This document shows positions 10,178 through 60,073 of a stretch of 64,000 nucleotides of DNA, piece after piece. The position numbers were made by a program, and so were the translations under genes. The number at the start of each line of letters is the position of its first letter. Within the stretch, counting starts at the first letter, position 1. This DNA is from an uncultured Alphaproteobacteria bacterium (GTDB taxonomy: Bacteria > Pseudomonadota > Alphaproteobacteria > HIMB59 > GCA-002718135), in the NCBI GenBank assembly GCA_902621305.1, contig CACNLM010000002.1:69812-133811 (forward strand). Reading direction: 5' to 3'. The notes beneath the pieces were generated by a model. The model was not told the origin of the DNA. It made no database searches and worked only from the letters and a program-made list of their open reading frames with translations.

Positions 10178-11185
10178 TTATTTATAATTTGTTTGATTAG
10201 AAATAGCATCAAGAACAGCTGCTCTATCCGCAGGACTTAGTTGAACAAGTCCAGCATCTAGTAAGTAACCTTCTGTTGCTTCTTCACTTACAAACTCATT
10301 AACATAATCCATTAAACCAGGAATAACACCAATGTGTGCTTTTTTAATGTAGAAGAATAAAGGTCTTGCTATTGGATATGAATAATCTTGGATACCTTCC
10401 ATAGAGATTTCAACACCGTTAATCATTGACGCTTTAACTTTATCAGAATTATTAGATACAAAACTATAACCAAAGATACCGAATGCACCTTGTTCTTTAG
10501 TTATATGCTCAACATACAGTTCATCATTTTCACCACCTTCAATAACATGGCCATCTTCACGATACGCTTGACAATCACCGTCAGCAACTAACATATCTTT
10601 AACACAACCCTTTTTCATTACAAGTGAGTCAAATGCATCTCTTGTTCCAGAAGTTGGAGGAGGTGCCATGATAGAAATTTCAACTTTTGGTAATCTTTTA
10701 TCTATTTCATACCAAGTTGTTGGAGCATTTGCATTATCTCTAGCCATTGCCTGCCAGATTTCTTCTTTAGTTAAATCAATGCCACCTTTCATTGTAGCAC
10801 CGTTAGTATATTTCCATTCATAATCTGCAGCGTATGCAAAAGCTATACCATCATTACCAACTCTAACTTCGATGATATCGGTTACACCACCATCTTGACA
10901 AAGTTTGAATTCTTTATCTTTTTGTGCTCTTGAAGAGTTAGTGATATCTGGATGTTCAACTCCAACACCTGCACAAAATAATTTGTGTCCTCCACCAGAA
11001 CCAGTTGATTCAATTACGGGTGCTTTCATTCCTTGAGATGCCATTTTTTCAGCAACTAAAGTAGCGAAAGGATAAACTGTGGAAGATCCTACAATTGAAA
11101 TATAGTCTCTTGCTGAAACTGAAGTAGTTCCAAATAAAGCAAGGACAGCAATTAATTTGATTACATTTTTCATATTAAGCCTCAT
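10178..11185 (-). CDS. pstS: phosphate ABC transporter substrate-binding protein PstS
   Basis: Signal peptide, then 'SIVGSSTVYPFAT' and 'TGSGGG', typical of the PstS/PhoT family. An alternative start at 11173 (MKNVIK) has a GAGG about 8 nt upstream. Confidence 0.85.
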   Translation of the reverse strand: MRLNMKNVIKLIAVLALFGTTSVSARDYISIVGSSTVYPFATLVAEKMASQGMKAPVIESTGSGGGHKLFCAGVGVEHPDITNSSRAQKDKEFKLCQDGGVTDIIEVRVGNDGIAFAYAADYEWKYTNGATMKGGIDLTKEEIWQAMARDNANAPTTWYEIDKRLPKVEISIMAPPPTSGTRDAFDSLVMKKGCVKDMLVADGDCQAYREDGHVIEGGENDELYVEHITKEQGAFGIFGYSFVSNNSDKVKASMINGVEISMEGIQDYSYPIARPLFFYIKKAHIGVIPGLMDYVNEFVSEEATEGYLLDAGLVQLSPADRAAVLDAISNQTNYK

Positions 11186-11215
11186 TTAAAATAAGGTTGT
11201 CCTACAGAATATATA

Positions 11216-12268
11216 TTAAGGATTTATTACAGTTTGCTGAAATACTGGTAAAGAAATAGTAAATGTTGAACCCTTATCTACCTTGCTTTTTATCGATAAT
11301 TTACCATTATGCCTATTAGTTATATGTTTAACAATAGATAAACCCAAACCCGTACCGCCTTGATTTCGAGATCTATTTTTATCTACTCTATAAAATCTTT
11401 CAGTAAGTCTAGTTAAATGCTCTTTCGATATGCCTTCTCCCTTATCTATAAAACTTATTTGGCAAAAGGTGGTATTGTCATCAATTACACTCTCAAGCTC
11501 AATTTCAATAGTAGAATTTTCTTTGCTATATTTGATTGCATTATCAGTTAGATTTAAAAAAACTTGAATCAAAGCATCTTTGTTTGCTGATATTGTAGAC
11601 TTATCAAAATCATCCTTGATTTGAACTTCAATTTTTTTTGCCATTAACTTGTTTTGTAAATTATCTACTACGCCATCAATTAATTGCCTTATATTCGCTT
11701 CTTGAAATTCTATCGGCTTATCTTCAGTCTCATATTTACTTAGTAATAATAAATCTTCGACTAATCTAGTCATACGCCAAGCCTGATCTTCCATTGTGTC
11801 TAAAAATTTACCAACCGTTTTGTCTTTGTTCTTATCTTCATTGAGTGAATTTTTAATTGTTTCAACATAGCCTAGAATTGAGGAAAGAGGAGTTCTCAAT
11901 TCATGACTTACATTAGCCACAAAATCTGTTCGCATTTGTTCGTAGTTTTTAAGAAGACTTTGATCGTTTAGTGATATTAATAATTCTTCATAATCTTTTT
12001 CAACAAATATTAAGTCAGCAATAAAATACATATCACTAAAATTAGATGGGGTGAATTCAAACCTAAAATCTTCTTTCTCCCTAAAGGCTTTATCAATAAA
12101 AGTATTTAACTCTGTTGATCTAATAATATTATTGAGATCTCTTCCTTCATCTATAAATAAAAATTTTTGTTTAGCTGCATTATTGTAAAAAATTATTTCC
12201 TTATTTGTATCAATTGCAATAATAATCGAAGGTATCTTACTTAGACTTAGTCTTAGTTTTTTTTTCAT
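11216..12268 (-). CDS. phoR: phosphate regulon sensor histidine kinase PhoR (no predicted membrane anchor)
   Basis: PAS-like N-terminus, HisKA 'FVANVSHELRTPLSSILGY', and HATPase motifs 'NLTDNAIKY', 'DKGEGI', 'GGTGLGLSIVKH'. Genomic context is the pst operon. Confidence 0.8.
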   Translation of the reverse strand: MKKKLRLSLSKIPSIIIAIDTNKEIIFYNNAAKQKFLFIDEGRDLNNIIRSTELNTFIDKAFREKEDFRFEFTPSNFSDMYFIADLIFVEKDYEELLISLNDQSLLKNYEQMRTDFVANVSHELRTPLSSILGYVETIKNSLNEDKNKDKTVGKFLDTMEDQAWRMTRLVEDLLLLSKYETEDKPIEFQEANIRQLIDGVVDNLQNKLMAKKIEVQIKDDFDKSTISANKDALIQVFLNLTDNAIKYSKENSTIEIELESVIDDNTTFCQISFIDKGEGISKEHLTRLTERFYRVDKNRSRNQGGTGLGLSIVKHITNRHNGKLSIKSKVDKGSTFTISLPVFQQTVINP

Positions 12269-12737
12269 ATTTCTTTAATTTTGGCCAATCATTGTCACTT
12301 AAAATATAACCTACACAATTTCTAGAACCACACTTACAAATGTGATCCACAAAATCTGTATCAAAAGGATAACCATAGTTATAGAAAAGTTCGTCTCCTT
12401 TTTTTATTCGTTTAATAGAAGAAATCCAAATCTCATTATCTATGATGTCTACTTCACAATTCGGATTACATGAGTGATTAATAAATTTTGCAAAGTTATA
12501 ATCAACATCACCGTCTATGTCGTATCGCTTGTTTAGTTCAAAAACATAGACCATGCCGTTATTTTTATCTTTTTTTGCTTTGCGGATTTGTTTATCTGCT
12601 CTTTTGTCACCCTCTCTTTTAGTAACTTTATCACCAATATATTGGATTACTTTCTGGCCTTTTTTAATATTAGTTTTTGCAAATAATCCAGAACCGTGAA
12701 GGGGTGATTTTTTTTTAAACCAAATTTTCTGCGTCAT
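12237..12737 (-). CDS. SET-domain (plus post-SET) protein, putative protein lysine methyltransferase
   Basis: Motifs 'SPLHGSGLFA', 'INHSCNPNCE', 'ELFYNYGY' and the Cys-rich post-SET 'CKCGSRNCVGY'. The start was moved to the ATG at 12737 (MTQKIW); the 90-codon N-terminal extension of the tracked ORF has no SET homology and overlaps the divergent plcP gene. Confidence 0.75.
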   Translation of the reverse strand: MTQKIWFKKKSPLHGSGLFAKTNIKKGQKVIQYIGDKVTKREGDKRADKQIRKAKKDKNNGMVYVFELNKRYDIDGDVDYNFAKFINHSCNPNCEVDIIDNEIWISSIKRIKKGDELFYNYGYPFDTDFVDHICKCGSRNCVGYILSDNDWPKLKKYEKKTKTKSK

Positions 12738-12823
12738 ACTGTTATTTTTATACAATACACACATATAATAATAAATTGTATTATAAAATGATACTTTTAT
12801 GTATAAGAACAAATCTTTAATTA

Positions 12824-13636
12824 ATGAAATTTGAAAGTAATAAAAAATTTTACCGCACAATTTGGATTTCGGATACCCACCTAGGAACCAGTGGTTGTAA
12901 AAGCAAAATGCTTTTAGAATTCTTAGAAGAAACAGATTCGGAATATTTATTTTTAGTAGGCGACATTGTTGATGGATGGCGCATGCGTAAGAAAATGTAT
13001 TGGCCACAAGAACATAACGACGTGGTTCAAAAAGTTTTAAAGAAAGCGAAAAATGGAGCTAGGGTAGTGCTTATCCCAGGAAATCATGATGAAGTATTAA
13101 AAGATTTTACAAATTTTTCCTTTGGAGAAATTTCAATAAAAAATGAAGATACGCATCAATTAGCTGATGGAAGGAAAGTACTGATTACACACGGAGATGA
13201 ATTTGATGCTGTGATAATTAATGCGAGGTGGTTAGCCAAAGTGGGATCAGCACTTTATGAATATTTACTAAAGTTAAATAATGTATTCAATTTTATTCGA
13301 CGAAAGATGGGCTTGTCTTATTGGTCACTGTCTCAATATTTAAAAAAGAAAACTAAGCATGCAACAAACTTTATTAGTAACTTTGAGTTTGCTGTATCTG
13401 ACAGAGCTAGAAGAGAAAATGCCGATGTTGTTGTGTGCGGGCATATACATAGACCAGAAATAAAGGAATTAAATGGTGTTCTCTATTGTAATGATGGTGA
13501 CTGGATTGAAAGTTGCACAGCACTCGTTGAAGATGAAATTGGCAATTTATCAATTCTTAATTGGCCCGAAGAAAGAGAAAAATTAAAATTAATTTCTTTA
13601 GAAGAAAGACGAAAAATAAAAGAGGATGCAGCCTAA
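12824..13636 (+). CDS. plcP: LpxH-like metallophosphoesterase, PlcP-type phospholipase C candidate (copy 1)
   Basis: Calcineurin-fold motifs 'ISDTHLG', 'VGDIVDGW', 'GNHDE', 'HGDEFD', 'CGHIH'. It overlaps a GT4 glycosyltransferase, the arrangement described for the SAR11/roseobacter lipid-remodelling plcP-agt operon. Confidence 0.7.
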   Translation: MKFESNKKFYRTIWISDTHLGTSGCKSKMLLEFLEETDSEYLFLVGDIVDGWRMRKKMYWPQEHNDVVQKVLKKAKNGARVVLIPGNHDEVLKDFTNFSFGEISIKNEDTHQLADGRKVLITHGDEFDAVIINARWLAKVGSALYEYLLKLNNVFNFIRRKMGLSYWSLSQYLKKKTKHATNFISNFEFAVSDRARRENADVVVCGHIHRPEIKELNGVLYCNDGDWIESCTALVEDEIGNLSILNWPEEREKLKLISLEERRKIKEDAA

Positions 13637-14627
13637 AAAAATCGCGTTAATTAGTGATGCGTGGGTTCCTCAGGTAAATGGCGTAGTTACGACATTTCAA
13701 AGCGTTATACCTATTCTAGAAAAAAAAGGTTTTGAAATTAAAATATTACATCCTGAGATGTTTAATAATTTTAGTTATCCTAGGTACAAAGAAATAAAAA
13801 TTTCTTACAATACTAAAAAAGTTACTGAAAAATTTTTTAAAGAATTTAATCCAGATATTGTTCATATAATGACTGAAGGTCCAGTAGGTTTTGCTGGTCG
13901 TAAGTACTGCCTTAAAAATAAACTACAATACACTTCTTCCTTTCACACCCGTTTTCCTGACTACATGAAGCAAAGAGCTTTTATCCCAAAGAGATTTACA
14001 TACTCCATATTAAGAAGACTACATAGTGATTCAGAAAGAGTTCTTGTTCCATCAGTTTCAATGCTAAATGAGTTAAAAAAATATGATTTTAAAAATTTAG
14101 TAGTTTGGAATAGAGGTGTTGATACAGAATTATTTAATCCAAATAAAAGAGACACAAACAGTAAAGATAGACAACTGACTTATGTTGGTAGAGTAGCAAT
14201 TGAAAAAAATATTGAAGAATTTTTAAAACTTAAAGGAAATTATAATAAAACTGTTGTGGGTGATGGTCCCGAATTACAAAAATATATTAATAAATATCCT
14301 GAAGTAAATTTTGTCGGTGTAAAAACTGGAGATGAACTAGCAAAATATTATGCAAACGCAGATGTATTTGTCTTTCCTTCTAAAACAGACACTTTAGGAA
14401 ATGTAATACTTGAAGCATTGGCTAGTGGAACACCAATTGCTGCATATCCAGTAACCGGGCCCATAGATGTGTTAACAGATGAAAAGATTAACACTTTAGA
14501 TAATAACTTGTTACAATCAGTTAAGAAGGCACTTAAAGTAAAAAGAGTTGATTGTAGAAATTTTACTCTTAAATTAACTTGGGACAAATGTGTGAATGAA
14601 TTTTTAGAATTCATGGTAAACGTTTAG
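13626..14627 (+). CDS. agt: GT4-family glycosyltransferase, glycosyl-diacylglycerol synthase candidate (Agt, copy 1)
   Basis: GT-B fold motifs 'SDAWVPQVNGVV', 'VGDGP' and 'FPSKTDTLGNVILEALASGTPI' (EX7E-like). Overlaps plcP by 11 nt. Confidence 0.7.
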   Translation: MQPKKIALISDAWVPQVNGVVTTFQSVIPILEKKGFEIKILHPEMFNNFSYPRYKEIKISYNTKKVTEKFFKEFNPDIVHIMTEGPVGFAGRKYCLKNKLQYTSSFHTRFPDYMKQRAFIPKRFTYSILRRLHSDSERVLVPSVSMLNELKKYDFKNLVVWNRGVDTELFNPNKRDTNSKDRQLTYVGRVAIEKNIEEFLKLKGNYNKTVVGDGPELQKYINKYPEVNFVGVKTGDELAKYYANADVFVFPSKTDTLGNVILEALASGTPIAAYPVTGPIDVLTDEKINTLDNNLLQSVKKALKVKRVDCRNFTLKLTWDKCVNEFLEFMVNV

Positions 14628-14641
14628 TTATTTAGGGTAAT

Positions 14642-15304
14642 TTGATAGTGACATTTTCTTTAAGACAAAAAATACTAGCAGAATTTATCGGGACATATTT
14701 TCTTGTACTAACAGTTGTAGGTAGTGGAATTATGGGAGAGTTAATGTCAAATGACCTTGGTATAATATTACTAGGAAACACTATCGCAACAGGTGCCATT
14801 TTATATGTAATTATTTCTATGTTTATTAATATCTCAGGAGCGTACTTTAATCCTGCTGTTGTATTAAGTGATATTATCCAAAAAAATATTCCTATTAATT
14901 ACGGAATAATTTTTATTATTACTCAGATTATTGCTGCTATATTTGGTTGTTTAACTGCAAATTGGTATTTTGAATATCCTATAATTGAATGGTCACTCAA
15001 TGAAAGAGTTGGGGTATTTAAATTCTTTTCAGAAATAATTGCAACTGTTGGATTATTATTAACTATTTTTATATTAAAAGAGGTAAACAAGGAAAGAATA
15101 GCTATTGGTGTAGCTCTATTTATTACCGCAGGATATTGGTTTACTTCATCAACAAGTTTTGCAAATCCAGCAGTAACTATAGGAAGAATGTTTACAGATA
15201 GCTTTAGTGGGATAAGTCCATCAAGTGTTCTAGGTTTTATTTTAGCTCAGATTATTGGTGCTCTTATTGCTACAGTTATTGTTAGATTGTTTTTTAAAAA
15301 TTAG
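14642..15304 (+). CDS. MIP-family channel (aquaporin/aquaglyceroporin-like)
   Basis: Six hydrophobic segments and two NPA boxes ('GAYFNPAVV', 'SFANPAVTIG'). TTG start as tracked; GTG at 14648 is an alternative. Confidence 0.85.
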   Translation: MIVTFSLRQKILAEFIGTYFLVLTVVGSGIMGELMSNDLGIILLGNTIATGAILYVIISMFINISGAYFNPAVVLSDIIQKNIPINYGIIFIITQIIAAIFGCLTANWYFEYPIIEWSLNERVGVFKFFSEIIATVGLLLTIFILKEVNKERIAIGVALFITAGYWFTSSTSFANPAVTIGRMFTDSFSGISPSSVLGFILAQIIGALIATVIVRLFFKN

Positions 15305-53007: not shown

Positions 53008-53025
53008 GGGGCCACTTTGGGCCCC
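53008..53025 (-). terminator. rho-independent terminator of the sHSP gene
   Basis: A GGGGCC / GGCCCC stem lies 9 nt after the sHSP stop. On the minus strand it is followed by AACATTTTTAACTTT. Confidence 0.7.
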
Positions 53026-53033
53026 TATCAAAA

Positions 53034-53471
53034 CTATTTTATTGAAATAAGTCTAGCTTTTTTTTCTTCTGGAATAATTCTCTCCAAATCAATCGCTAAA
53101 AGTCCATTCTTCAATTCAGCATCTTTGACTTTGATGTCTTCTGAAATTGTGAACGATCTTTCAAACTGTCTTGTTGAGATTCCTTTATGGATTACACCAT
53201 TGCCATTTTCATTAACCACTTTTTCTTTAGGTTTATTTCTAACAGTTAGGTTGTTTTCTTTTAATTCAATCTCAATATCTTCTTTACTATATCCAGCAAG
53301 AGCAACTTCAATTTTATAGTTATGCTCATCAACTCTATGAATATTGTAAGGTGGATAATTTGTATTGTATCGTTCCGTAGACTCCAACATTCTATCAAAT
53401 TCATCAAAAATTGAGTCAAATCCAACAGAGAATGGTCTTAGAGAATTCCAAACGGATAGGTTTCTAGTCAT
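53034..53471 (-). CDS. Hsp20/alpha-crystallin small heat-shock protein
   Basis: 'YPPYNI', 'YKIEVALAGYSKEDIEIE', 'GISTRQFERSF' and 'NGLLAIDL' alpha-crystallin-domain motifs. The start was moved to the ATG at 53471, which is preceded by AAGGAG; the tracked extension lies in the promoter/5'UTR. Confidence 0.88.
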   Translation of the reverse strand: MTRNLSVWNSLRPFSVGFDSIFDEFDRMLESTERYNTNYPPYNIHRVDEHNYKIEVALAGYSKEDIEIELKENNLTVRNKPKEKVVNENGNGVIHKGISTRQFERSFTISEDIKVKDAELKNGLLAIDLERIIPEEKKARLISIK

Positions 53472-53534
53472 AATAACTCCTTTATTAAGCAAGTTTATTT
53501 TTTCTGCACCCACAATGGCATACAGACAATTATG

Positions 53535-53562
53535 ATGTGGGGATGATTGTGTTAAATTCAAG
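53535..53562 (-). promoter_or_regulatory. sigma-32 (RpoH)-type heat-shock promoter of the sHSP gene
   Basis: The minus strand reads CTTGAA-N14-CCCCACAT, against the consensus CTTGAA-N13-17-CCCCATNT. A CCCC run is conspicuous in this AT-rich DNA. Lies about 65-90 nt upstream of the ATG. Confidence 0.7.
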
Positions 53563-53568
53563 TCTTTA

Positions 53569-54225
53569 TTATTTTTTTCTTATAAACGATAATCCATCAG
53601 ATAATGGGAGAAGAGAGAATTCCACTCTTGTGTCATTTTGAATTTTTAAATTTAAATCACGGATAGTTTGTGTTTGAGAGTCTTGTATAGTTTCGTCAGC
53701 AACATCACCATGCCAAAGCATATTATCAATAACTATTATTCCATTAGAAACTAATAGGTTTAACGACAGTTCGTAATAATTTGGATAATTATTCTTATCA
53801 GCATCTATAAAAATTAAATCATAACTTTGTTGACGATCTATCATGCTTTGCATTACCTCAACACCATCTCCAATAATCGATTCAATTTTTGAACTTATAT
53901 TATCTAATTCCCAATATTTTTTTGCTAAGGGTAAAAATTCATCTGAATTATCAACAGTTACAATTTTTCCTGATTCAGGTAGACCTCTTGCCAAAAACAA
54001 AGTACTCATCCCTGTAAATCTTCCAATTTCTAAACAATTTTTAGCATTAGAAATTTTAGTTATCATTTCTAAAAACTGACCTTGTTCTTTTGCAATCTGC
54101 ATTTGTGAAACACTGCCAAGTTTTAAAGTTTCATTTTCTAGTTCACTAATTATTTTATCTTCTCTGTAACCTACGGTTTGTAAATATTGAACAAGTGCTT
54201 CATTAATTTCAGTTTGGGTACTCAT
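53569..54225 (-). CDS. class I SAM-dependent O-methyltransferase (family 3, caffeoyl-CoA OMT-like)
   Basis: 'LEIGRFTGMSTL' (SAM motif I), 'FIDADKNNY' and 'GIIVIDNMLWHG', typical of the Methyltransf_3 family. Confidence 0.7.
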   Translation of the reverse strand: MSTQTEINEALVQYLQTVGYREDKIISELENETLKLGSVSQMQIAKEQGQFLEMITKISNAKNCLEIGRFTGMSTLFLARGLPESGKIVTVDNSDEFLPLAKKYWELDNISSKIESIIGDGVEVMQSMIDRQQSYDLIFIDADKNNYPNYYELSLNLLVSNGIIVIDNMLWHGDVADETIQDSQTQTIRDLNLKIQNDTRVEFSLLPLSDGLSFIRKK

Positions 54226-55535
54226 TAGTTTATGGTTTCAAATATTTCAGATAGTTTGTGAGTTTTTTTATCTGAAATGATGAAACAACTTTGTATTTTA
54301 TTTATTAAATTATCATCTATATTTTTATTTGAGTATAAACTTAATAAAGGAGTTGATGAATTCACTTCATCACTAATATTGAGTACATTATCATATCCAA
54401 CTCCGTAATCTATTTTATCGGTAACCTGTTTTCTTCCACCTCCTAGTTCAATAAGTATAAGGCCTAATTCTCTGGTATGAATTTTTTCTATCCAGCCTTG
54501 TTCACTAGAAAATACATCTTTTCGAACTGAAGTATTTATTAAATCCTTTTCATAAGATGATAAAATATTTTTTGGTCCACCTAAGGCCGCAACCATCATT
54601 TCAAATTTTTCTGCAGCTAGTCCATTATTAATAACCGTATTAATTTTATTATAAGCCTCTTCTTTCGAAATTTTATAAATGTTTACTAATAGCGAAGATA
54701 TTAATTCATTAGTGATCTTTTCTAATCGGTGATCTTTAAAATCATTTTTAATATATTTTATGCATTCTAATATCTCCAGTGTATGACCAGCACTTTTACC
54801 TAGGACCTGATTCATATCCGTTAATATAGCTTCGCAATGTAAACCTGCTCCTTTAGCGACTTTTACTAAGGAGTTGGATAAATCTCTTGCTATATCAATA
54901 GTGCTATTAAAAGATCCATTACCAACTTTTACATCAAGTACTAAAGATGAAAGACCACTTGCAATTTTTTTTGAAAGAATAGATGATGTTATTAAAGGTA
55001 AAGATTCTACTGTACCTACAATATCCCTTATAGAATATAATTTTTTATCAGCTGGTGCTAAATTAGAGGTTTGACCAATAATTGCACAACCAACGTCTTT
55101 TACAACTTTTTTAAAAGTTTCTAAATCAGGCTTTGTATTGTACCCAGGTATTGAATCAAATTTATCTAGAGTACCACCGGTATGACCCAAACCTCTACCT
55201 GAAATCATAGGTACATACAGTCCACAAGCTGCAAGAATTGGTGCTAAAATAATGCTCGTCTTGTCTCCAACACCACCAGTTGAGTGCTTATCACAAACCA
55301 ACTCAGAATCTACAATCTCAGACCAATTTATTGTATCGCCTGAGTTCGTCATCGCTTCAGTTAAACAAACAGTTTCTTCAGGAGTCATTCCATTTGAAAA
55401 TATTGCCATGCTCATTGCTGCAATTTGCGCGTCTGAAAAAGATCCATTTGTTAAACCGTCTACAAAAAAGTTGATATCTTCTTTTGATAGATCTTGGTTA
55501 TCTCTTTTCTTTCTAATTATCTCTTGAGGTATCAT
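54225..55535 (-). CDS. deoA: thymidine (pyrimidine-nucleoside) phosphorylase
   Basis: 'IIRKKRD', 'DKHSTGGVGDKTS' and 'SGRGLGHTGGTLDK' signatures. 436 aa. Confidence 0.9.
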   Translation of the reverse strand: MIPQEIIRKKRDNQDLSKEDINFFVDGLTNGSFSDAQIAAMSMAIFSNGMTPEETVCLTEAMTNSGDTINWSEIVDSELVCDKHSTGGVGDKTSIILAPILAACGLYVPMISGRGLGHTGGTLDKFDSIPGYNTKPDLETFKKVVKDVGCAIIGQTSNLAPADKKLYSIRDIVGTVESLPLITSSILSKKIASGLSSLVLDVKVGNGSFNSTIDIARDLSNSLVKVAKGAGLHCEAILTDMNQVLGKSAGHTLEILECIKYIKNDFKDHRLEKITNELISSLLVNIYKISKEEAYNKINTVINNGLAAEKFEMMVAALGGPKNILSSYEKDLINTSVRKDVFSSEQGWIEKIHTRELGLILIELGGGRKQVTDKIDYGVGYDNVLNISDEVNSSTPLLSLYSNKNIDDNLINKIQSCFIISDKKTHKLSEIFETIN

Positions 55536-56343
55536 CGAATTGAACTTCTTGTATAAATTGTTTAATTAAATTTAAAACATTGTTCTCTGCTAAACTTGCA
55601 TTCTCTAAAGTTTCTTGATGACTTAATTTTGTTTTATTCATACCAGCAGCTAAGTTGGTGATTACACTGATACCAATAACAGGAAGTCCGCAATGATTAG
55701 CAACTAAAACTTCTGGTACTGTAGACATTCCAACTGCATTTCCGCCTATTACTTTTAAGGCATTGATTTCAGCAGGTGTTTCAAAGTTTGGTCCTGAGTA
55801 CATACAATAAATACCTTCATAAATTTTTTGATCTATTTTTTTAGCGACTTGCATTAACTGATCTCTATAAAACTTATGATACCCATCACTCATATCATGA
55901 AAGCGAGGGCCATACTCTTCAGCATTGGGTCCAATAAGTGGATTGAAACCACTCCAGTTAATATGATCTTTAATTGCCATTAGACTGCCAGCCGGCATAG
56001 CTTCATCTAAACTACCTGCTGCATTTGTAACAACTAATAACTTGCACCCAATGTCCTTTAATACTCTTATGGGTGAAGCTAAGCTTTGAGGATTGTGTCC
56101 TTCATAAATATGGGATCTTCCATACATACAAACAACATTTAAAGTATTTATTTTTCCTAAAACTAATTTACCTGCGTGACCTTTGACAGTTGGCTGTGGA
56201 AAATCAGTTAACTGTTCATATGAAATTGATTCTTGAATATCTTTTTCTTCAAAAAAATTAGTTAGTCCACTTCCTAAAATTACGGCAATATCAGGTGAAG
56301 TATTATTTGTTATGTCTAAAAATTTTTTGGCCGAAGGTAGCAT
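55513..56343 (-). CDS. purine-nucleoside phosphorylase (trimeric PNP/PunA type)
   Basis: 'VILGSGL', 'VKGHAGKLVLG', 'GRSHIYEG', 'TNAAGSL', 'GPNFETPAE' and 'GMSTVPEV'. Confidence 0.88.
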   Translation of the reverse strand: MLPSAKKFLDITNNTSPDIAVILGSGLTNFFEEKDIQESISYEQLTDFPQPTVKGHAGKLVLGKINTLNVVCMYGRSHIYEGHNPQSLASPIRVLKDIGCKLLVVTNAAGSLDEAMPAGSLMAIKDHINWSGFNPLIGPNAEEYGPRFHDMSDGYHKFYRDQLMQVAKKIDQKIYEGIYCMYSGPNFETPAEINALKVIGGNAVGMSTVPEVLVANHCGLPVIGISVITNLAAGMNKTKLSHQETLENASLAENNVLNLIKQFIQEVQFDDTSRDN

Positions 56344-56759
56344 TAAAGATTCTCTGGGCCAAAAGAATCTGGAAGTAATTCTTCGAGCGTAGATGTTTTC
56401 ATATGACCATTTTCGTTACACATATGAATCTTAGTATCTAAAGTAGCAAATTCTCTTAACCTCTGTCTACAACCGCCACAAGGTGAGCATAATAATTCAC
56501 CTGAACCTATAACCACAACTTCTAAAATTTTTTTGTTTCCATTAGATATCATATTTCCAATTGCTGTTGCTTCGGCACACTGGGATTGAGGATAGGCTGC
56601 ATTTTCAACATTACAACCAGTAATAATTTTACTATCTTCTGTTAGAAAAGCTGCTCCTACTTTAAAATTTGAATATGGCACATGAGCTTGCTCTCTAACT
56701 TTTTTTGCAGCCTTGAATAAACTATCAAAATTTTCTGAAACCATATTCTTGTTTAACAT
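56343..56759 (-). CDS. cdd: cytidine deaminase
   Basis: Zn motifs 'CAEATAI' and 'PCGGCRQ'. 138 aa (homotetrameric type). Confidence 0.88.
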   Translation of the reverse strand: MLNKNMVSENFDSLFKAAKKVREQAHVPYSNFKVGAAFLTEDSKIITGCNVENAAYPQSQCAEATAIGNMISNGNKKILEVVVIGSGELLCSPCGGCRQRLREFATLDTKIHMCNENGHMKTSTLEELLPDSFGPENL

Positions 56760-56785
56760 GAAATTACTAAAAAAATTATTTATTT

Positions 56786-57937
56786 CTAAATCTTAAACAA
56801 ATCTTGAGACAAATCAGGAAGTTCATCTCCCCAAAAAACTTCTTTACGTAAAAATTCTGGATCTTGGTTAAAACAAACAGACATTGCAGAATTATAAACA
56901 GCCCTTGAGTCAATAGTCGAATTTAGATCTCTTCCCTCAAACAATTCTTTCTTTTTTAGTCCAGGCCAATCTGTATAAACTTGAGATTTTTTTAACAAAC
57001 CTCCAGCCATTAGTATTGCACTTCCATATCCGTGCTCAGTTCCATAGCCTCCATTTTGTTTTATAGTTCGGCCAAATTCAGTGAGAGTAAGAATTAGTGT
57101 ATTATCAAATGCTTGGCCAAGATTTTCATGAAGAATAGTAACAATCTTATTTACTTCTTCTAGTTCATCAGCATGCGCTCCATCAACACCTCCTTGAGCA
57201 GCATGGGTATCAAAACCATCTAAATCAAATACAGCAACTCTAGGACCACTTTTATCTTTTAATTGTTTAGCAGCTTCAAGAGCAAGTTTTTTTCTATCAT
57301 CAGAGTCAGTAGCTATTTGCATAGACAATGGTCTTTGTCTAATTGTATCAAGTGTAGATTTAATTAGCTCGTTATGTTCACCTTTAAATTCATTATAAAT
57401 TTGATCTATTAACTTTGTTTCAACAAAATCTGGTGATGGGAAGAAATTATTATTCTGTGGCACACCTCTTAATAAAAGTGGCATTGGTAAAGATATTGCC
57501 AAACCTTTTCCTATAATATTAGAAGCTAGTAATCCCCTACCAAGCCATCCTGTTTTTTCTTTGTATGGAATGTGTGCTCCAGTTTCCATTAAATTTTGCC
57601 CATCAAAATGTGATCTGCCTGTGTAAGGAATGTTTGTGGCATGAACAAATGCCGCTTGATTAGTTTGCCAGAGCTTATGAAAAATTTCTAATTTAGGGTG
57701 AAGACCAAAATCACTATTCAAATTAAGAACATCTTCCAAAATAAGTTTTTTTCTTAATTTTTTTAGACGTTTATCTCCAATAACAGGAACAGCTGTTAAA
57801 CCATCCATCCCTCCGCGAAGTGATATAATAATTAGATTTTTTTTCTGCATTGAAGCAAAACTAATTTTTGGAAAATATCCTGAAAGAAATAGTGTTGTTG
57901 ATCCTCCAATTAAAAAATTTCTTCTTGTGCAATTCAT
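56786..57937 (-). CDS. DUF1501-family protein (alkaline-phosphatase/sulfatase-superfamily fold), Tat-exported
   Basis: Tat motif 'TRRNFLIGGS'. 'FDLDGFDTHA' and 'TEFGRT...GTEHG' are typical of DUF1501. Overlaps the DUF1800 gene by 4 nt. Confidence 0.7.
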   Translation of the reverse strand: MNCTRRNFLIGGSTTLFLSGYFPKISFASMQKKNLIIISLRGGMDGLTAVPVIGDKRLKKLRKKLILEDVLNLNSDFGLHPKLEIFHKLWQTNQAAFVHATNIPYTGRSHFDGQNLMETGAHIPYKEKTGWLGRGLLASNIIGKGLAISLPMPLLLRGVPQNNNFFPSPDFVETKLIDQIYNEFKGEHNELIKSTLDTIRQRPLSMQIATDSDDRKKLALEAAKQLKDKSGPRVAVFDLDGFDTHAAQGGVDGAHADELEEVNKIVTILHENLGQAFDNTLILTLTEFGRTIKQNGGYGTEHGYGSAILMAGGLLKKSQVYTDWPGLKKKELFEGRDLNSTIDSRAVYNSAMSVCFNQDPEFLRKEVFWGDELPDLSQDLFKI

Positions 57938-59370
57938 ACTTTTAATACTCCAGGTAAATTACAAATGACTCCATACTTTTGGCCTAAATCAAAATCTAAT
58001 GTGCCGAACCTAAAATTTTCAATAAGTGATGCCATATTTTCATGATCTTCAAAATTATTTTTAAGACAAGCTAAAATAAAATCATGGGATCTGTTTCCAG
58101 ATTTAACAAGTATTGGAAGCTCAACAGAAGAGAACCAAAAGCGACGTAATAATAATTCTGGTGATACCCAATCTACCTCAAAATCACTCCAACCATTTGG
58201 TTGTTTTGCACGATAAGGTGAATGACCAATTTCTCTAAGTATCCATGATAGTTGTCTTTGTCTTCTATTTGGCTTTGAACTGAAAGAATAATTCATTTTT
58301 TCAGAAGAAAGAGGAATATTTAAATCAAACATTTTAGATAATTGCATCAACCATATTTCTGGTGGATGAAATTTATGTGTATTCTCATTATGTTTGTAAG
58401 CTTGAGTAATAACTGCTTTGTGAATTTCAATTAGACTTCCATTGGACTTGTTCCATGCTTCTATTACTGGGTAAATCATATCTTCAGTTGGTTCATCTGT
58501 AATAAAATGCCTACATAATTTTGTTGAAACAAATTTGATACAGATTGGGTGTGTTGCCAAATCATGAATTACTTTTGCAAGTTCTCTTTTTGCATCATTT
58601 TTATATTTAACTCCTAAAACTATTTTGTCTCCTTTTTGATGCATTTCTTGATCAAACCATATATCCCCAGTCTCTAAATTTTTTCTATCCCATTTGTGTG
58701 CCCAACCTGTCATGATATAGGCTAACTGAATCACATCTTCCTGAGTGTATCCAGCATTTGGAGATACTGTATGTAATTCTAATAATTCTCTTGCATGATT
58801 TTCGTTTATAGTTTCCCCCCACTCCATTCCTTTTTTAGAATTGGGACCAAAAGATTCTGAGTTATCAAGATGGTGAATCATACACCATGAAGTAGTAACT
58901 GACTGAACCATCTCTTCAAAAGTTTTAACCATATTAGGTCTTATAATCTCACGTTGATAAGGCCCAGTGCTAAACTCTGCTAAAAAATCTTTTTCACTTA
59001 TTGCAAAATGATTTCCCCAAAAAAGCCAAAAACGCTCAAAAACAGGCTGTTTGGAATACTTAGTTTGATAATGACGAATAGCATGTTCGTTTAATTCAAA
59101 ATACTTTTCACCAGTTTTTATTCTTAATTCATCTTTTGCTTTTTTATAGGCATGTTTGTCATTTTTAAATTTTTTTCTTAAAACTTCTCTATCTCCGTAT
59201 ACCCACTCTCCATATTTTTTTCTTAATTCTTTTTCTGTTGGAATTATTCCAGGCCATAAGAGATTGGGTATAGTATCTAGTTGATTTAATGCCCAATTAA
59301 GAGGATCTTTATCTGGTTTATCATTTGGTGATAAACCAAACGCTACTCGTCTATAAAATTTTAATGACAT
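57934..59370 (-). CDS. DUF1800-family protein
   Basis: 478 aa. Motifs 'FWGNHFA' and 'ARELLELHTV' and the canonical pairing with DUF1501. Confidence 0.65.
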   Translation of the reverse strand: MSLKFYRRVAFGLSPNDKPDKDPLNWALNQLDTIPNLLWPGIIPTEKELRKKYGEWVYGDREVLRKKFKNDKHAYKKAKDELRIKTGEKYFELNEHAIRHYQTKYSKQPVFERFWLFWGNHFAISEKDFLAEFSTGPYQREIIRPNMVKTFEEMVQSVTTSWCMIHHLDNSESFGPNSKKGMEWGETINENHARELLELHTVSPNAGYTQEDVIQLAYIMTGWAHKWDRKNLETGDIWFDQEMHQKGDKIVLGVKYKNDAKRELAKVIHDLATHPICIKFVSTKLCRHFITDEPTEDMIYPVIEAWNKSNGSLIEIHKAVITQAYKHNENTHKFHPPEIWLMQLSKMFDLNIPLSSEKMNYSFSSKPNRRQRQLSWILREIGHSPYRAKQPNGWSDFEVDWVSPELLLRRFWFSSVELPILVKSGNRSHDFILACLKNNFEDHENMASLIENFRFGTLDFDLGQKYGVICNLPGVLKV

Positions 59371-59422
59371 ATTTAAAAAAAAATAGTTTACATATATTTA
59401 TAATATTTAAAAATAAAATTTA

Positions 59423-60073
59423 ATGAAAAAAATACCCTTAAAAATTTGTGGCATAACAAATGTAAAATCAGTTGAAGTTGCACATAAAAATAAAATAAAA
59501 TCATTAGGTTTTGCGAGTAAAAGTTTAAATGGACCAAACACAGCTAGTGATAAGAAAATTCAATCATTAATTAAAGAGTGTAAAAATTATAAAATAGAAT
59601 CAGTTCTTTTGACTCGGTATGTATCATTAGATAAGATAATTGAACAAATAGATTTCACAAAACCAAAGACAATTTCATGTTCGTATCATTTTTCCAAAAA
59701 AGACTTATTAAAAATAAAAAATATATTTAAAAGATTAAAAATTGGGATTGCTATTAATCCTGAAAATTTTAATAAAAATTATATTGAGTCAATTAAAAAA
59801 ATTGTTGATGTAGTTTATTTTGATATGAATGTTTATAGAAAAAAAAGCATTAAAAAATACTCATTGAAAAAAAGTATTAAACAAATAGAATTTATTAAAA
59901 ATAAAAATATTCCTGTTTATATTGGTGGTGGTATAGATAAGAAAAATGTTTCGAATATTCTGAAACAAACTTCACCTTTTGGTTTGGATATTTCAAGAGG
60001 TTTAAAGAATAACCGTAATTTAATATCTCAAGAAAAGCTTAAAGATTTATTAAATCAAATTTCTATAGGATAA
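59423..60073 (+). CDS. phosphoribosylanthranilate isomerase (TrpF)-like TIM-barrel protein
   Basis: 'LKICGITN' catalytic-Cys motif, 'YFDMN', and 'YIGGGIDKKNV...PFGLDISRG' phosphate-binding end. Very K/N/I-rich and divergent. Confidence 0.55.
   Translation: MKKIPLKICGITNVKSVEVAHKNKIKSLGFASKSLNGPNTASDKKIQSLIKECKNYKIESVLLTRYVSLDKIIEQIDFTKPKTISCSYHFSKKDLLKIKNIFKRLKIGIAINPENFNKNYIESIKKIVDVVYFDMNVYRKKSIKKYSLKKSIKQIEFIKNKNIPVYIGGGIDKKNVSNILKQTSPFGLDISRGLKNNRNLISQEKLKDLLNQISIG

Follow-up and report, generated by a model that had tools for sequence, protein, structure and literature searches.

The window analysed here is a stretch of 64,000 nucleotides (nt) with a G+C content of about 30%, derived from an uncultured alphaproteobacterium (contig CACNLM010000002.1, positions 69,812 to 133,811) that homologues of its genes assign to Pelagibacterales (SAR11). 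On its minus strand it carries a string of six genes, in which a DUF1800-DUF1501 pair is directly followed by a nucleoside cassette and an O-methyltransferase gene. A preliminary description of the string had regarded this as fusion of the pair into a nucleoside-catabolic operon and had deduced from it an activity for the pair. We found that nucleoside-gene adjacency is confined to one Pelagibacterales super-clade, and this restriction is central to our interpretation of the locus.

The six-gene string

The genes of the string, and the seam between its two parts, are as follows.

57934-59370, minus strand: DUF1800 protein, 478 amino acids (PF08811, E 9e-76)
56786-57937, minus strand: DUF1501 protein, 383 amino acids (PF07394, E 5e-24)
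56760-56785, minus strand: seam between the DUF pair and the nucleoside cassette, 26 nt, read from the sequence
56343-56759, minus strand: cdd, cytidine deaminase of the tetrameric type (TIGR01354, 156.8 bits against a cut-off of 113.65)
55513-56343, minus strand: purine-nucleoside phosphorylase (PNP) of the PunA, or inosine-guanosine, type (NF006054, 342.5 bits against a cut-off of 218; PF01048, E 7e-48)
54225-55535, minus strand: deoA, thymidine phosphorylase (NF004490, 548 bits against a cut-off of 269; PF02885, PF00591 and PF07831)
53569-54225, minus strand: class I S-adenosylmethionine-dependent O-methyltransferase, Methyltransf_3 (PF01596, E 4.8e-62)

Open reading frames lie exactly where the preliminary description had placed six co-oriented genes, and all six of its family assignments were reproduced by Pfam or NCBIfam matches. 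Its account of the junctions, overlaps of 1-23 nt and a single gap of 26 nt, agrees with the distances of -4, +26, -1, -23 and -1 nt that we obtained from DUF1800 to the O-methyltransferase. The first of these is a 4-nt ATGA overlap of the DUF1800 stop with the DUF1501 start; in the last, the O-methyltransferase start overlaps the deoA stop by 1 nt.

Tight packing alone is uninformative here, as it is the default for this Pelagibacterales genome. The 48 same-strand neighbour pairs of the window are separated by a median of 6.5 nt; 32 gaps (67%) measure at most 30 nt and 17 pairs overlap, at a coding density of about 94%. Five tight junctions in succession make this the window's longest run; about one or two runs of this kind would be expected there. 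Since the packing of the six genes is the norm of the genome, it carries by itself no functional information.

The products of cdd, PNP, deoA and the O-methyltransferase gene have no signal peptide and are cytoplasmic, and the first three are standard enzymes of nucleoside salvage and catabolism. Classical nucleoside operons are deoCABD of E. coli, with cdd located elsewhere, and dra-nupC-pdp of B. subtilis. With them the window shares the presence, in a single string, of phosphorylases for pyrimidine nucleosides (thymidine) and for purine nucleosides, with cytidine deaminase feeding them. It differs from them in that its PNP is of the PunA and not the DeoD type, that an O-methyltransferase is translationally coupled to deoA, and that neither deoC, deoB nor a nucleoside transporter is present in the string. 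The adjacent ABC transporter has a PotD/PhnS/ThiB-like binding protein and not one of the nucleoside (BMP) type. In every linked locus the O-methyltransferase gene follows deoA with coupled stop and start. The Methyltransf_3 family includes the tRNA 5-hydroxyuridine methyltransferase TrmR/YrrM, and by this analogy a nucleoside-related substrate is conceivable for the O-methyltransferase.

According to the preliminary description, the exported pair would be a nucleotidase or phosphodiesterase that makes nucleosides from extracellular nucleotides or nucleic acids and sets phosphate free at the same time. In this model the pair would work in the periplasm, also on oligonucleotides, and Cdd, PNP and DeoA, made from the same transcript, would break down the nucleosides after their uptake. 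We regard this as unlikely. The lack of a nucleoside transporter, deoB and deoC in the string speaks against it, as does the evidence presented in the next section.

Distribution of the link and structure of the seam

The preliminary description had called for a comparative neighbourhood analysis, and this analysis went against its proposal: the link was found in one super-clade only and is kept there no better than the flanking genes. Homologous loci (designated L) were inspected for 80 of 505 GTDB hits and for 80 of more than 600 metagenome hits. The order folK, PRAI-like gene, DUF1800-DUF1501-cdd-PNP-deoA-O-methyltransferase-hsp20 is found in 67 of 67 assessable GTDB species with a DUF1501 identity of at least 83%, and deeper relatives keep the same order (L001-3, 86% DUF1501 identity; L009-10, 65%; L007-8, 62%). 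In the linked loci synteny extends over the entire block of genes between cysS and hsp20, the folate genes included, so the DUF-cdd adjacency is conserved no better than adjacency to unrelated genes; its conservation within the clade equals that of such neighbours as folK and the PRAI-like gene. Deep nodes of a neighbour-joining tree of DUF1501 have 27-41% bootstrap support, and the tree does not separate one gain of the linkage from several losses.

Outside the super-clade the link was not encountered. The cdd-PNP-deoA genes are absent from this position in all nine loci of other SAR11 species (DUF1501 identity 61-65%), and the nucleoside link is also absent in L004-6, L011-14 and L083. Distant DUF1501 sequences were used to seed a scan of metagenomes, from which 80 loci with 32-93% identity were obtained. 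None of the 48 non-clade loci with at least 1.5 kb of downstream sequence (at least 3 kb in 32 of them) contains cdd, PNP or deoA, and in the whole scan these genes occur in just three loci, all belonging to the window clade. The link is likewise missing from five of five distant loci (DUF1501 identity 32-37%, contigs of 0.1-1.8 Mb), in which the pair forms a solitary bicistron surrounded by genes that are unrelated or lie on the opposite strand. Adjacency in several independent lineages, beyond background synteny, which we took as the mark of functional coupling, was not found.

Other genes occupy the neighbourhood in these relatives. In L004-6 and L083 (65% DUF1501 identity) the order is DUF1800-DUF1501-SOUL, and in L085 (64%) a Liv-type ABC transporter precedes the pair and a CBS-less IMPDH follows it. 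This IMPDH, which is a housekeeping gene, and a gene for a YtoQ protein were the remaining nucleotide-related neighbours; we rejected both as support for a nucleotidase. In L011-12 and L117 (60%), hsp20 stands directly after the pair, with no nucleoside cassette, and this hsp20 gene is 47-48% identical to that of the window. Such an order suggests that the cdd-PNP-deoA-O-methyltransferase block was either inserted between DUF1501 and hsp20 in an ancestor of the window or deleted in L011, L012 and L117.

A further group of Pelagibacteraceae loci (L013-14 and L086-L094, 58-63%) shows GT2, the pair, zero to four genes of the PF14099 polysaccharide-lyase family and then umuDC on the opposite strand; PMT_2 precedes GT2 in L086, and an alginate-lyase-like gene is added in L090. 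The PF14099 genes of L086-L094 abut stop-to-start (region about 11150-15300), and in SAR11 this array looks like a hypervariable island of secreted lyase-like proteins. GT2 also lies immediately upstream of the pair in the metagenome loci L105, L113, L120 and L124, PAP2 and PMT_2 genes lie near it in L011, and a PF14099 gene (E 7e-14) follows it in the unrelated locus L158.

These neighbours are compatible with a different role, in which the pair removes or transfers sulfate, phosphate or a phospho-alcohol on an envelope or extracellular glycan or lipid, the nucleoside genes being bystanders. Published associations point in the same direction: in gamma- and alphaproteobacteria, DUF1800 and DUF1501 are reported to have been transferred together with a chitin synthase of bacterial type and with a sugar epimerase (PMC5122149), and in PVC bacteria DUF1501 adjoins PSCyt/PSD proteins with carbohydrate-binding domains (PMC3542564). 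Against such a role stand the five distant loci, in which the pair is alone without glycan genes, and the location of the PF14099 genes in a hypervariable island, where they may be unrelated cargo. SAR11, moreover, is not known to degrade polysaccharides. We judge an envelope or glycan role not very likely, and it has at least as much independent support as the nucleotidase idea.

A faint independent hint at nucleic acids comes from an unrelated marine lineage of 35-45% G+C. Eleven of its loci (L133, L138, L139, L148, L150-L152, L154, L155, L157 and L164) share, right after DUF1501, a signal-peptide protein with a conserved domain of about 200 amino acids, for which neither Pfam nor PDB gave a match. 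We considered this domain as a divergent PF14099 lyase and rejected the idea, as a local hidden Markov model search and hhalign show no relationship. In L154 and L157 the protein carries in addition a C-terminal SNase domain and a Sel1 repeat, and in L156 SNase and Sel1 are found in a separate gene, so that a secreted protein with an SNase nuclease domain lies directly downstream of DUF1501 in three loci (E 8e-8 in L154, 4e-9 in L156, 3e-4 in L157). To the same lineage belong L158, with its lyase-like PF14099 gene, and L142-L146, with PG_binding-like proteins. As support for a nucleotidase the SNase association is limited to three loci, all from a single lineage, and domains of the SNase type are also known from polysaccharide contexts (ExoI).

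The seam itself was then compared among the linked loci. DUF1501-cdd is the sole variable junction, with a gap of 22 nt in L009, 25-35 nt in the window clade, 72-74 nt in L075 and L078 and 210 nt in L007 and L008, while the cdd-PNP-deoA-O-methyltransferase junctions are fixed. Moreover, the window is a recombinant with its breakpoint at this seam. Its folK-to-DUF1800 part shares 98-99% identity with L052-type genomes, and its cdd-to-ABC-transporter part 98-100% with those of the L049 type; in a comparison of window positions of about 56800-57800 with L052 and L049, the identity switches at the seam. Across the seam identity to the L052-type genomes falls from 98-99% to 74-86%, and their cdd-PNP-deoA-O-methyltransferase cassette, standing beside a nearly identical DUF pair, is 76-88% identical to that of the window at the DNA level (12-24% different). 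A variable seam that is also a recombination breakpoint indicates that the two modules travel independently, which again disfavours the nucleotidase proposal.

On balance, and with moderate confidence, we regard the six-gene run as a lineage-specific juxtaposition, in a streamlined genome, of an autonomous DUF1800-DUF1501 bicistron and a nucleoside salvage cassette, without functional fusion. As regards the argument of the preliminary description, its premises of fold, Tat export and pairing are sound, as described below; the step from operon fusion to a nucleotidase or phosphodiesterase does not withstand the neighbourhood comparison, with no linked locus among the 9, 48 and 5 assessed outside the super-clade.

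Export, fold and candidate active site of the pair

DUF1501 scores 85.6 bits against the PF07394 cut-off of 27, the Pfam match covering residues 228-351 only. Full-length alignments number 7,839 cluster representatives (clusters at 50% identity) at E ≤ 1e-3 and 531 at E ≤ 1e-30. Sequence and profile searches of PDB with DUF1501 gave chance hits only; Pfam at E ≤ 10 assigns no second family to either DUF1501 or DUF1800, and NCBIfam has no model for either. The preliminary description called the pair one without assigned function, and our literature search indeed found no paper that assigns one, nor anything specific on DUF1501 biochemistry or SAR11 nucleoside catabolism.

The protein begins with MNCTRRNFLIGG, a canonical twin-arginine (Tat) signal. 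Its N-terminus, MNCTRRNFLIGGSTTLFLSGYFPKISFAS, is well formed in this respect, comprising TRRNFL, a hydrophobic stretch and SFA, and R4 and R5 of the motif are invariant in 106 homologues. The Tat signal noted in the preliminary description is thus borne out by conservation, and the sequence supports export of DUF1501, a point in favour of the nucleotidase proposal.

A first AlphaFold2 model, based on a shallow SAR11-only alignment, was poor (pLDDT 59). It was remade with 106 sequences, giving a pLDDT of 81 and a pTM of 0.80. Foldseek comparison of this model with PDB returned 73 matches at E ≤ 1e-3, and all 50 of those listed belong to the alkaline-phosphatase superfamily, with probabilities of 0.99-1.00, in accordance with the alkaline-phosphatase/sulfatase-type fold that the preliminary description had named. 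Best among them are S1_19 carrageenan sulfatases (E 1.4e-6), followed by the lipid- and glycan-handling YejM/PbgA; choline sulfatase, the phosphonate monoester hydrolase PMH (4uph), Xanthomonas NPP (E 1.6e-4) and NPP3 (E 3.6e-4) are also present. LtaS and EptC were matched only with the first, poorer model. Since TM-scores reach only about 0.4, DUF1501 is, as far as the model goes, a distant branch of the superfamily with no close solved relative. For the envelope or glycan role, the carbohydrate sulfatases and YejM/PbgA at the head of the matches are favourable and the low TM-scores to all known structures unfavourable; for the nucleotidase, the fold itself and the presence of NPP and autotaxin phosphodiesterases among the matches count in favour.

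Family members of 30-47% identity have D44, D242, H244, E286, F287, G288, R289, N294, H301 and G302 invariant, and R107-S108-H109-F110 and D/E300 nearly so. Judged from secondary-structure positions in the model, D44 comes after strand 33-39 and D242-x-H244 after strand 233-238, S108 stands before helix 109-118, and E300-H301 belongs to strand 299-302. The conserved residues would thus sit where the superfamily puts its catalytic elements, namely an Asp behind the first strand, a nucleophile where a helix begins, a D-x-H motif behind a central strand and [D/E]-H within a late strand. The formylglycine motif CxPxR (C/S-x-P-x-R) is absent, the family consensus at this place being P-Y-R/T-x-R-S-H-F-D-G-Q, and DUF1501 has no PF00884 match at E ≤ 10; this argues against a formylglycine sulfatase mechanism. 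These features suggest that DUF1501 is a periplasmic metallo-esterase or transferase whose nucleophile is a serine.

The same pattern bears on both proposed roles. A conserved Ser, D-x-H and [D/E]-H in place of CxPxR would bring the ligand set nearer to two-metal phosphoesterases than to sulfatases, in favour of a nucleotidase, and the missing sulfatase motif is a point against the envelope or glycan role. Like DUF1501, the enzymes that match it best in structure, S1 sulfatases and phosphonate monoester hydrolases, are exported; they differ from it in that the sulfatases have C/S-x-P-x-R where DUF1501 has R107-S108-H109-F110, and identity is only 11-14%. NPPs (Xanthomonas 2gsn/7n1s, autotaxin) are secreted or periplasmic and have the superfamily fold in common with DUF1501 (Foldseek E 1.6e-4 to 3.6e-4). 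Together with the UshA-type 5'-nucleotidases they release nucleosides or nucleotides, which is the activity ascribed to the pair by the preliminary description. DUF1501 is nevertheless unlike either group. It has no PF01663 match at E ≤ 10, leaving a distant fold match to NPP (E 1.6e-4, TM 0.41), and its candidate nucleophile is Ser where NPPs have Thr. Nor is there a Metallophos or 5_nucleotid_C match in Pfam or NCBIfam, or any Pfam match to the 5'-nucleotidase, Metallophos or Phosphodiest families at E ≤ 10. The fold of UshA is a different, calcineurin-like one, and NPPs are not known to need a DUF1800-like partner.

Such a partner accompanies DUF1501 without exception in our material. All 47 assessable metagenome loci, and all the other loci that we looked at, have DUF1800 as the gene directly preceding DUF1501, which is in line with the nearly constant pairing asserted in the preliminary description. 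No signal peptide was found on DUF1800 in any locus examined. Its N-terminus is hydrophilic, with a conserved motif that reads FYRRVAFGL in the window and ANRFGLGARPG in distant members. The polar motifs FWxNHF, YLDN and NENxARELLELHT are invariant. DUF1800 may have a catalytic or cofactor-binding role of its own instead of being a passive partner; neither sequence nor profile search found a relative of it in PDB. In two loci DUF1800 is interrupted: in metagenome contig L002 (6556-8004) it is split into two open reading frames of 181 and 280 amino acids, and in L099 (5602-6914), where tblastn aligns it as two segments that differ in frame, it has a frameshift or is truncated. These breaks are either errors of assembly or signs that the partner gene occasionally becomes a pseudogene.

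Other proteobacterial DUF1800-DUF1501 bicistrons resemble that of the window in having DUF1800 first, genes that abut or overlap, a Tat signal on DUF1501 and none on DUF1800, and the same invariant residues. They are unlike the window super-clade in that the pair stands alone or with secreted or glycan-related neighbours, whereas here cytoplasmic nucleoside genes follow, in the window within 26 nt. The modules of PVC bacteria (PMC3542564) have in common with the window a DUF1501 family member, often with a Tat signal, and an obligate neighbouring partner; this partner is a large cytochrome-motif PSCyt/PSD1 protein in PVC bacteria and DUF1800 in the window.

Probable co-expression, flanking genes and possible functions of the pair

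Two features delimit the string in terms of transcription.

59371-59422, no strand: AT-rich divergent intergenic region of 52 nt between DUF1800 and the PRAI-like gene, presumed promoter region of the string, read from the sequence
53008-53025, minus strand: GC-rich terminator-like hairpin, GGGGCC...GGCCCC, from a pattern scan; the first convincing terminator downstream of DUF1800, after hsp20

A weak sigma-70-like match, TTTTCA-18-TATTAT, is present at 59429-59400 on the minus strand, and promoter-like matches in the pattern scan are no commoner than in shuffled sequence. The scan also gave two weak terminator-like hairpins within the DUF genes and none that is strong before 53025-53008. The scan detected no terminator in the 210-nt DUF1501-cdd gap of L007. 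Neither that gap nor the sequence preceding DUF1800 and cdd in the window has a riboswitch or leader match in Rfam. The six genes are probably co-transcribed.

On the other side of the divergent region lies a gene that belongs to the syntenic block.

59423-60073, plus strand: PRAI (TrpF)-like gene, 216 amino acids, divergent from DUF1800 (PF00697, E 8e-7)

All NCBIfam TrpF models score far below cut-off for this gene. It ends a pabB-pabA-pabC-folP-folB-folK string. In the linked clade it adjoins the DUF pair, and it does so even in L006, a locus that lacks the nucleoside cassette.

Downstream, hsp20 appears to possess control elements of its own.

53034-53471, minus strand: hsp20, small heat-shock protein (Hsp20/IbpA-like), 145 amino acids from the ATG at 53471 (PF00011, E 1e-15)
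53535-53562, minus strand: sigma-32 (RpoH)-like promoter, near-consensus, CTTGAA-N14-CCCCACAT, read in the sequence
53466-53527, minus strand: candidate ROSE_3-like RNA thermometer ending at the hsp20 start codon (RF02523, sub-threshold with 28.7 bits against a gathering score of 43, E 0.0087)

The hsp20 ATG is located 97 nt beyond the O-methyltransferase gene, and homologous loci also call a product of 145 amino acids. The consensus in question is that of heat-shock promoters of E. coli and alphaproteobacteria, and by its resemblance to it the element at 53562-53535 would be a sigma-32-type promoter of hsp20. A ROSE_3 match (E 0.16) occurs at the same position in L007, and the leader may be a ROSE-like thermometer in SAR11. 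The string is therefore functionally mixed, including an O-methyltransferase and being followed by hsp20 with a sigma-32-like promoter and a ROSE-like leader of its own.

In the juxtaposition that we favour, SAR11 genome streamlining would have brought together two functionally independent modules. One would be the widespread, self-contained DUF1800-DUF1501 bicistron. Its DUF1501 most likely uses S108 as nucleophile and D44, D242, H244 and E/D300-H301 as metal ligands, and would be a periplasmic phospho- or sulfo-ester hydrolase or transferase. DUF1800, coupled to it through ATGA, most likely forms a 1:1 complex with DUF1501, either hitch-hiking out by means of the DUF1501 Tat signal or maturing DUF1501 in the cytoplasm; translational coupling combined with the lack of a signal peptide suggests such a complex and one of these roles. 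The other module, cdd-punA-deoA with the O-methyltransferase gene, would be an ordinary cytoplasmic cassette for nucleoside salvage and catabolism, after which hsp20 would follow under its own heat-shock control.

Several observations weigh against this separation of the modules. No terminator or strong promoter was detected in the window between the DUF pair and the nucleoside cassette, so co-expression of both is likely, and it could be functionally exploited. The adjacency is old in its clade and unbroken there, down to 62% DUF1501 identity, through a deep part of SAR11. Another lineage pairs the DUF genes with secreted SNase-domain proteins, which fits a nucleic-acid or nucleotide substrate. 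Finally, the loci inspected cover a part of the GTDB and metagenome hits.

A more specific proposal builds on these observations and would make the pair a so far missing periplasmic organophosphate-scavenging enzyme of SAR11. It would be a Tat-exported, two-subunit phosphodiesterase or nucleotidase with a Ser nucleophile, forming a new branch of the alkaline-phosphatase superfamily and stripping phosphate from dissolved nucleotides and oligonucleotides. We hold this to be distinctly unlikely. If it were true, co-expression with Cdd, PNP and DeoA would harvest phosphate together with nucleoside carbon and nitrogen, and the same principle would be at work a second time in the SNase-fused partner of the other marine lineage.

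The arrangement described here is already contained in many public SAR11 genomes, and its gene families are known. Evidently, the nucleoside-operon context is lineage-specific and should not serve to annotate the DUF1800/DUF1501 family. What is gained concerns the design of assays: candidate catalytic residues (D44, S108, D242, H244, E300 and H301), evidence against a formylglycine mechanism, and recurrent alternative partners in the form of GT2, PF14099 lyase-like and SNase-domain proteins. DUF1800 and DUF1501 are very widespread, as the 7,839 cluster representatives illustrate, and are present in the most abundant marine heterotroph; a real functional lead on the pair would be valuable for understanding marine phosphorus and nucleotide cycling.

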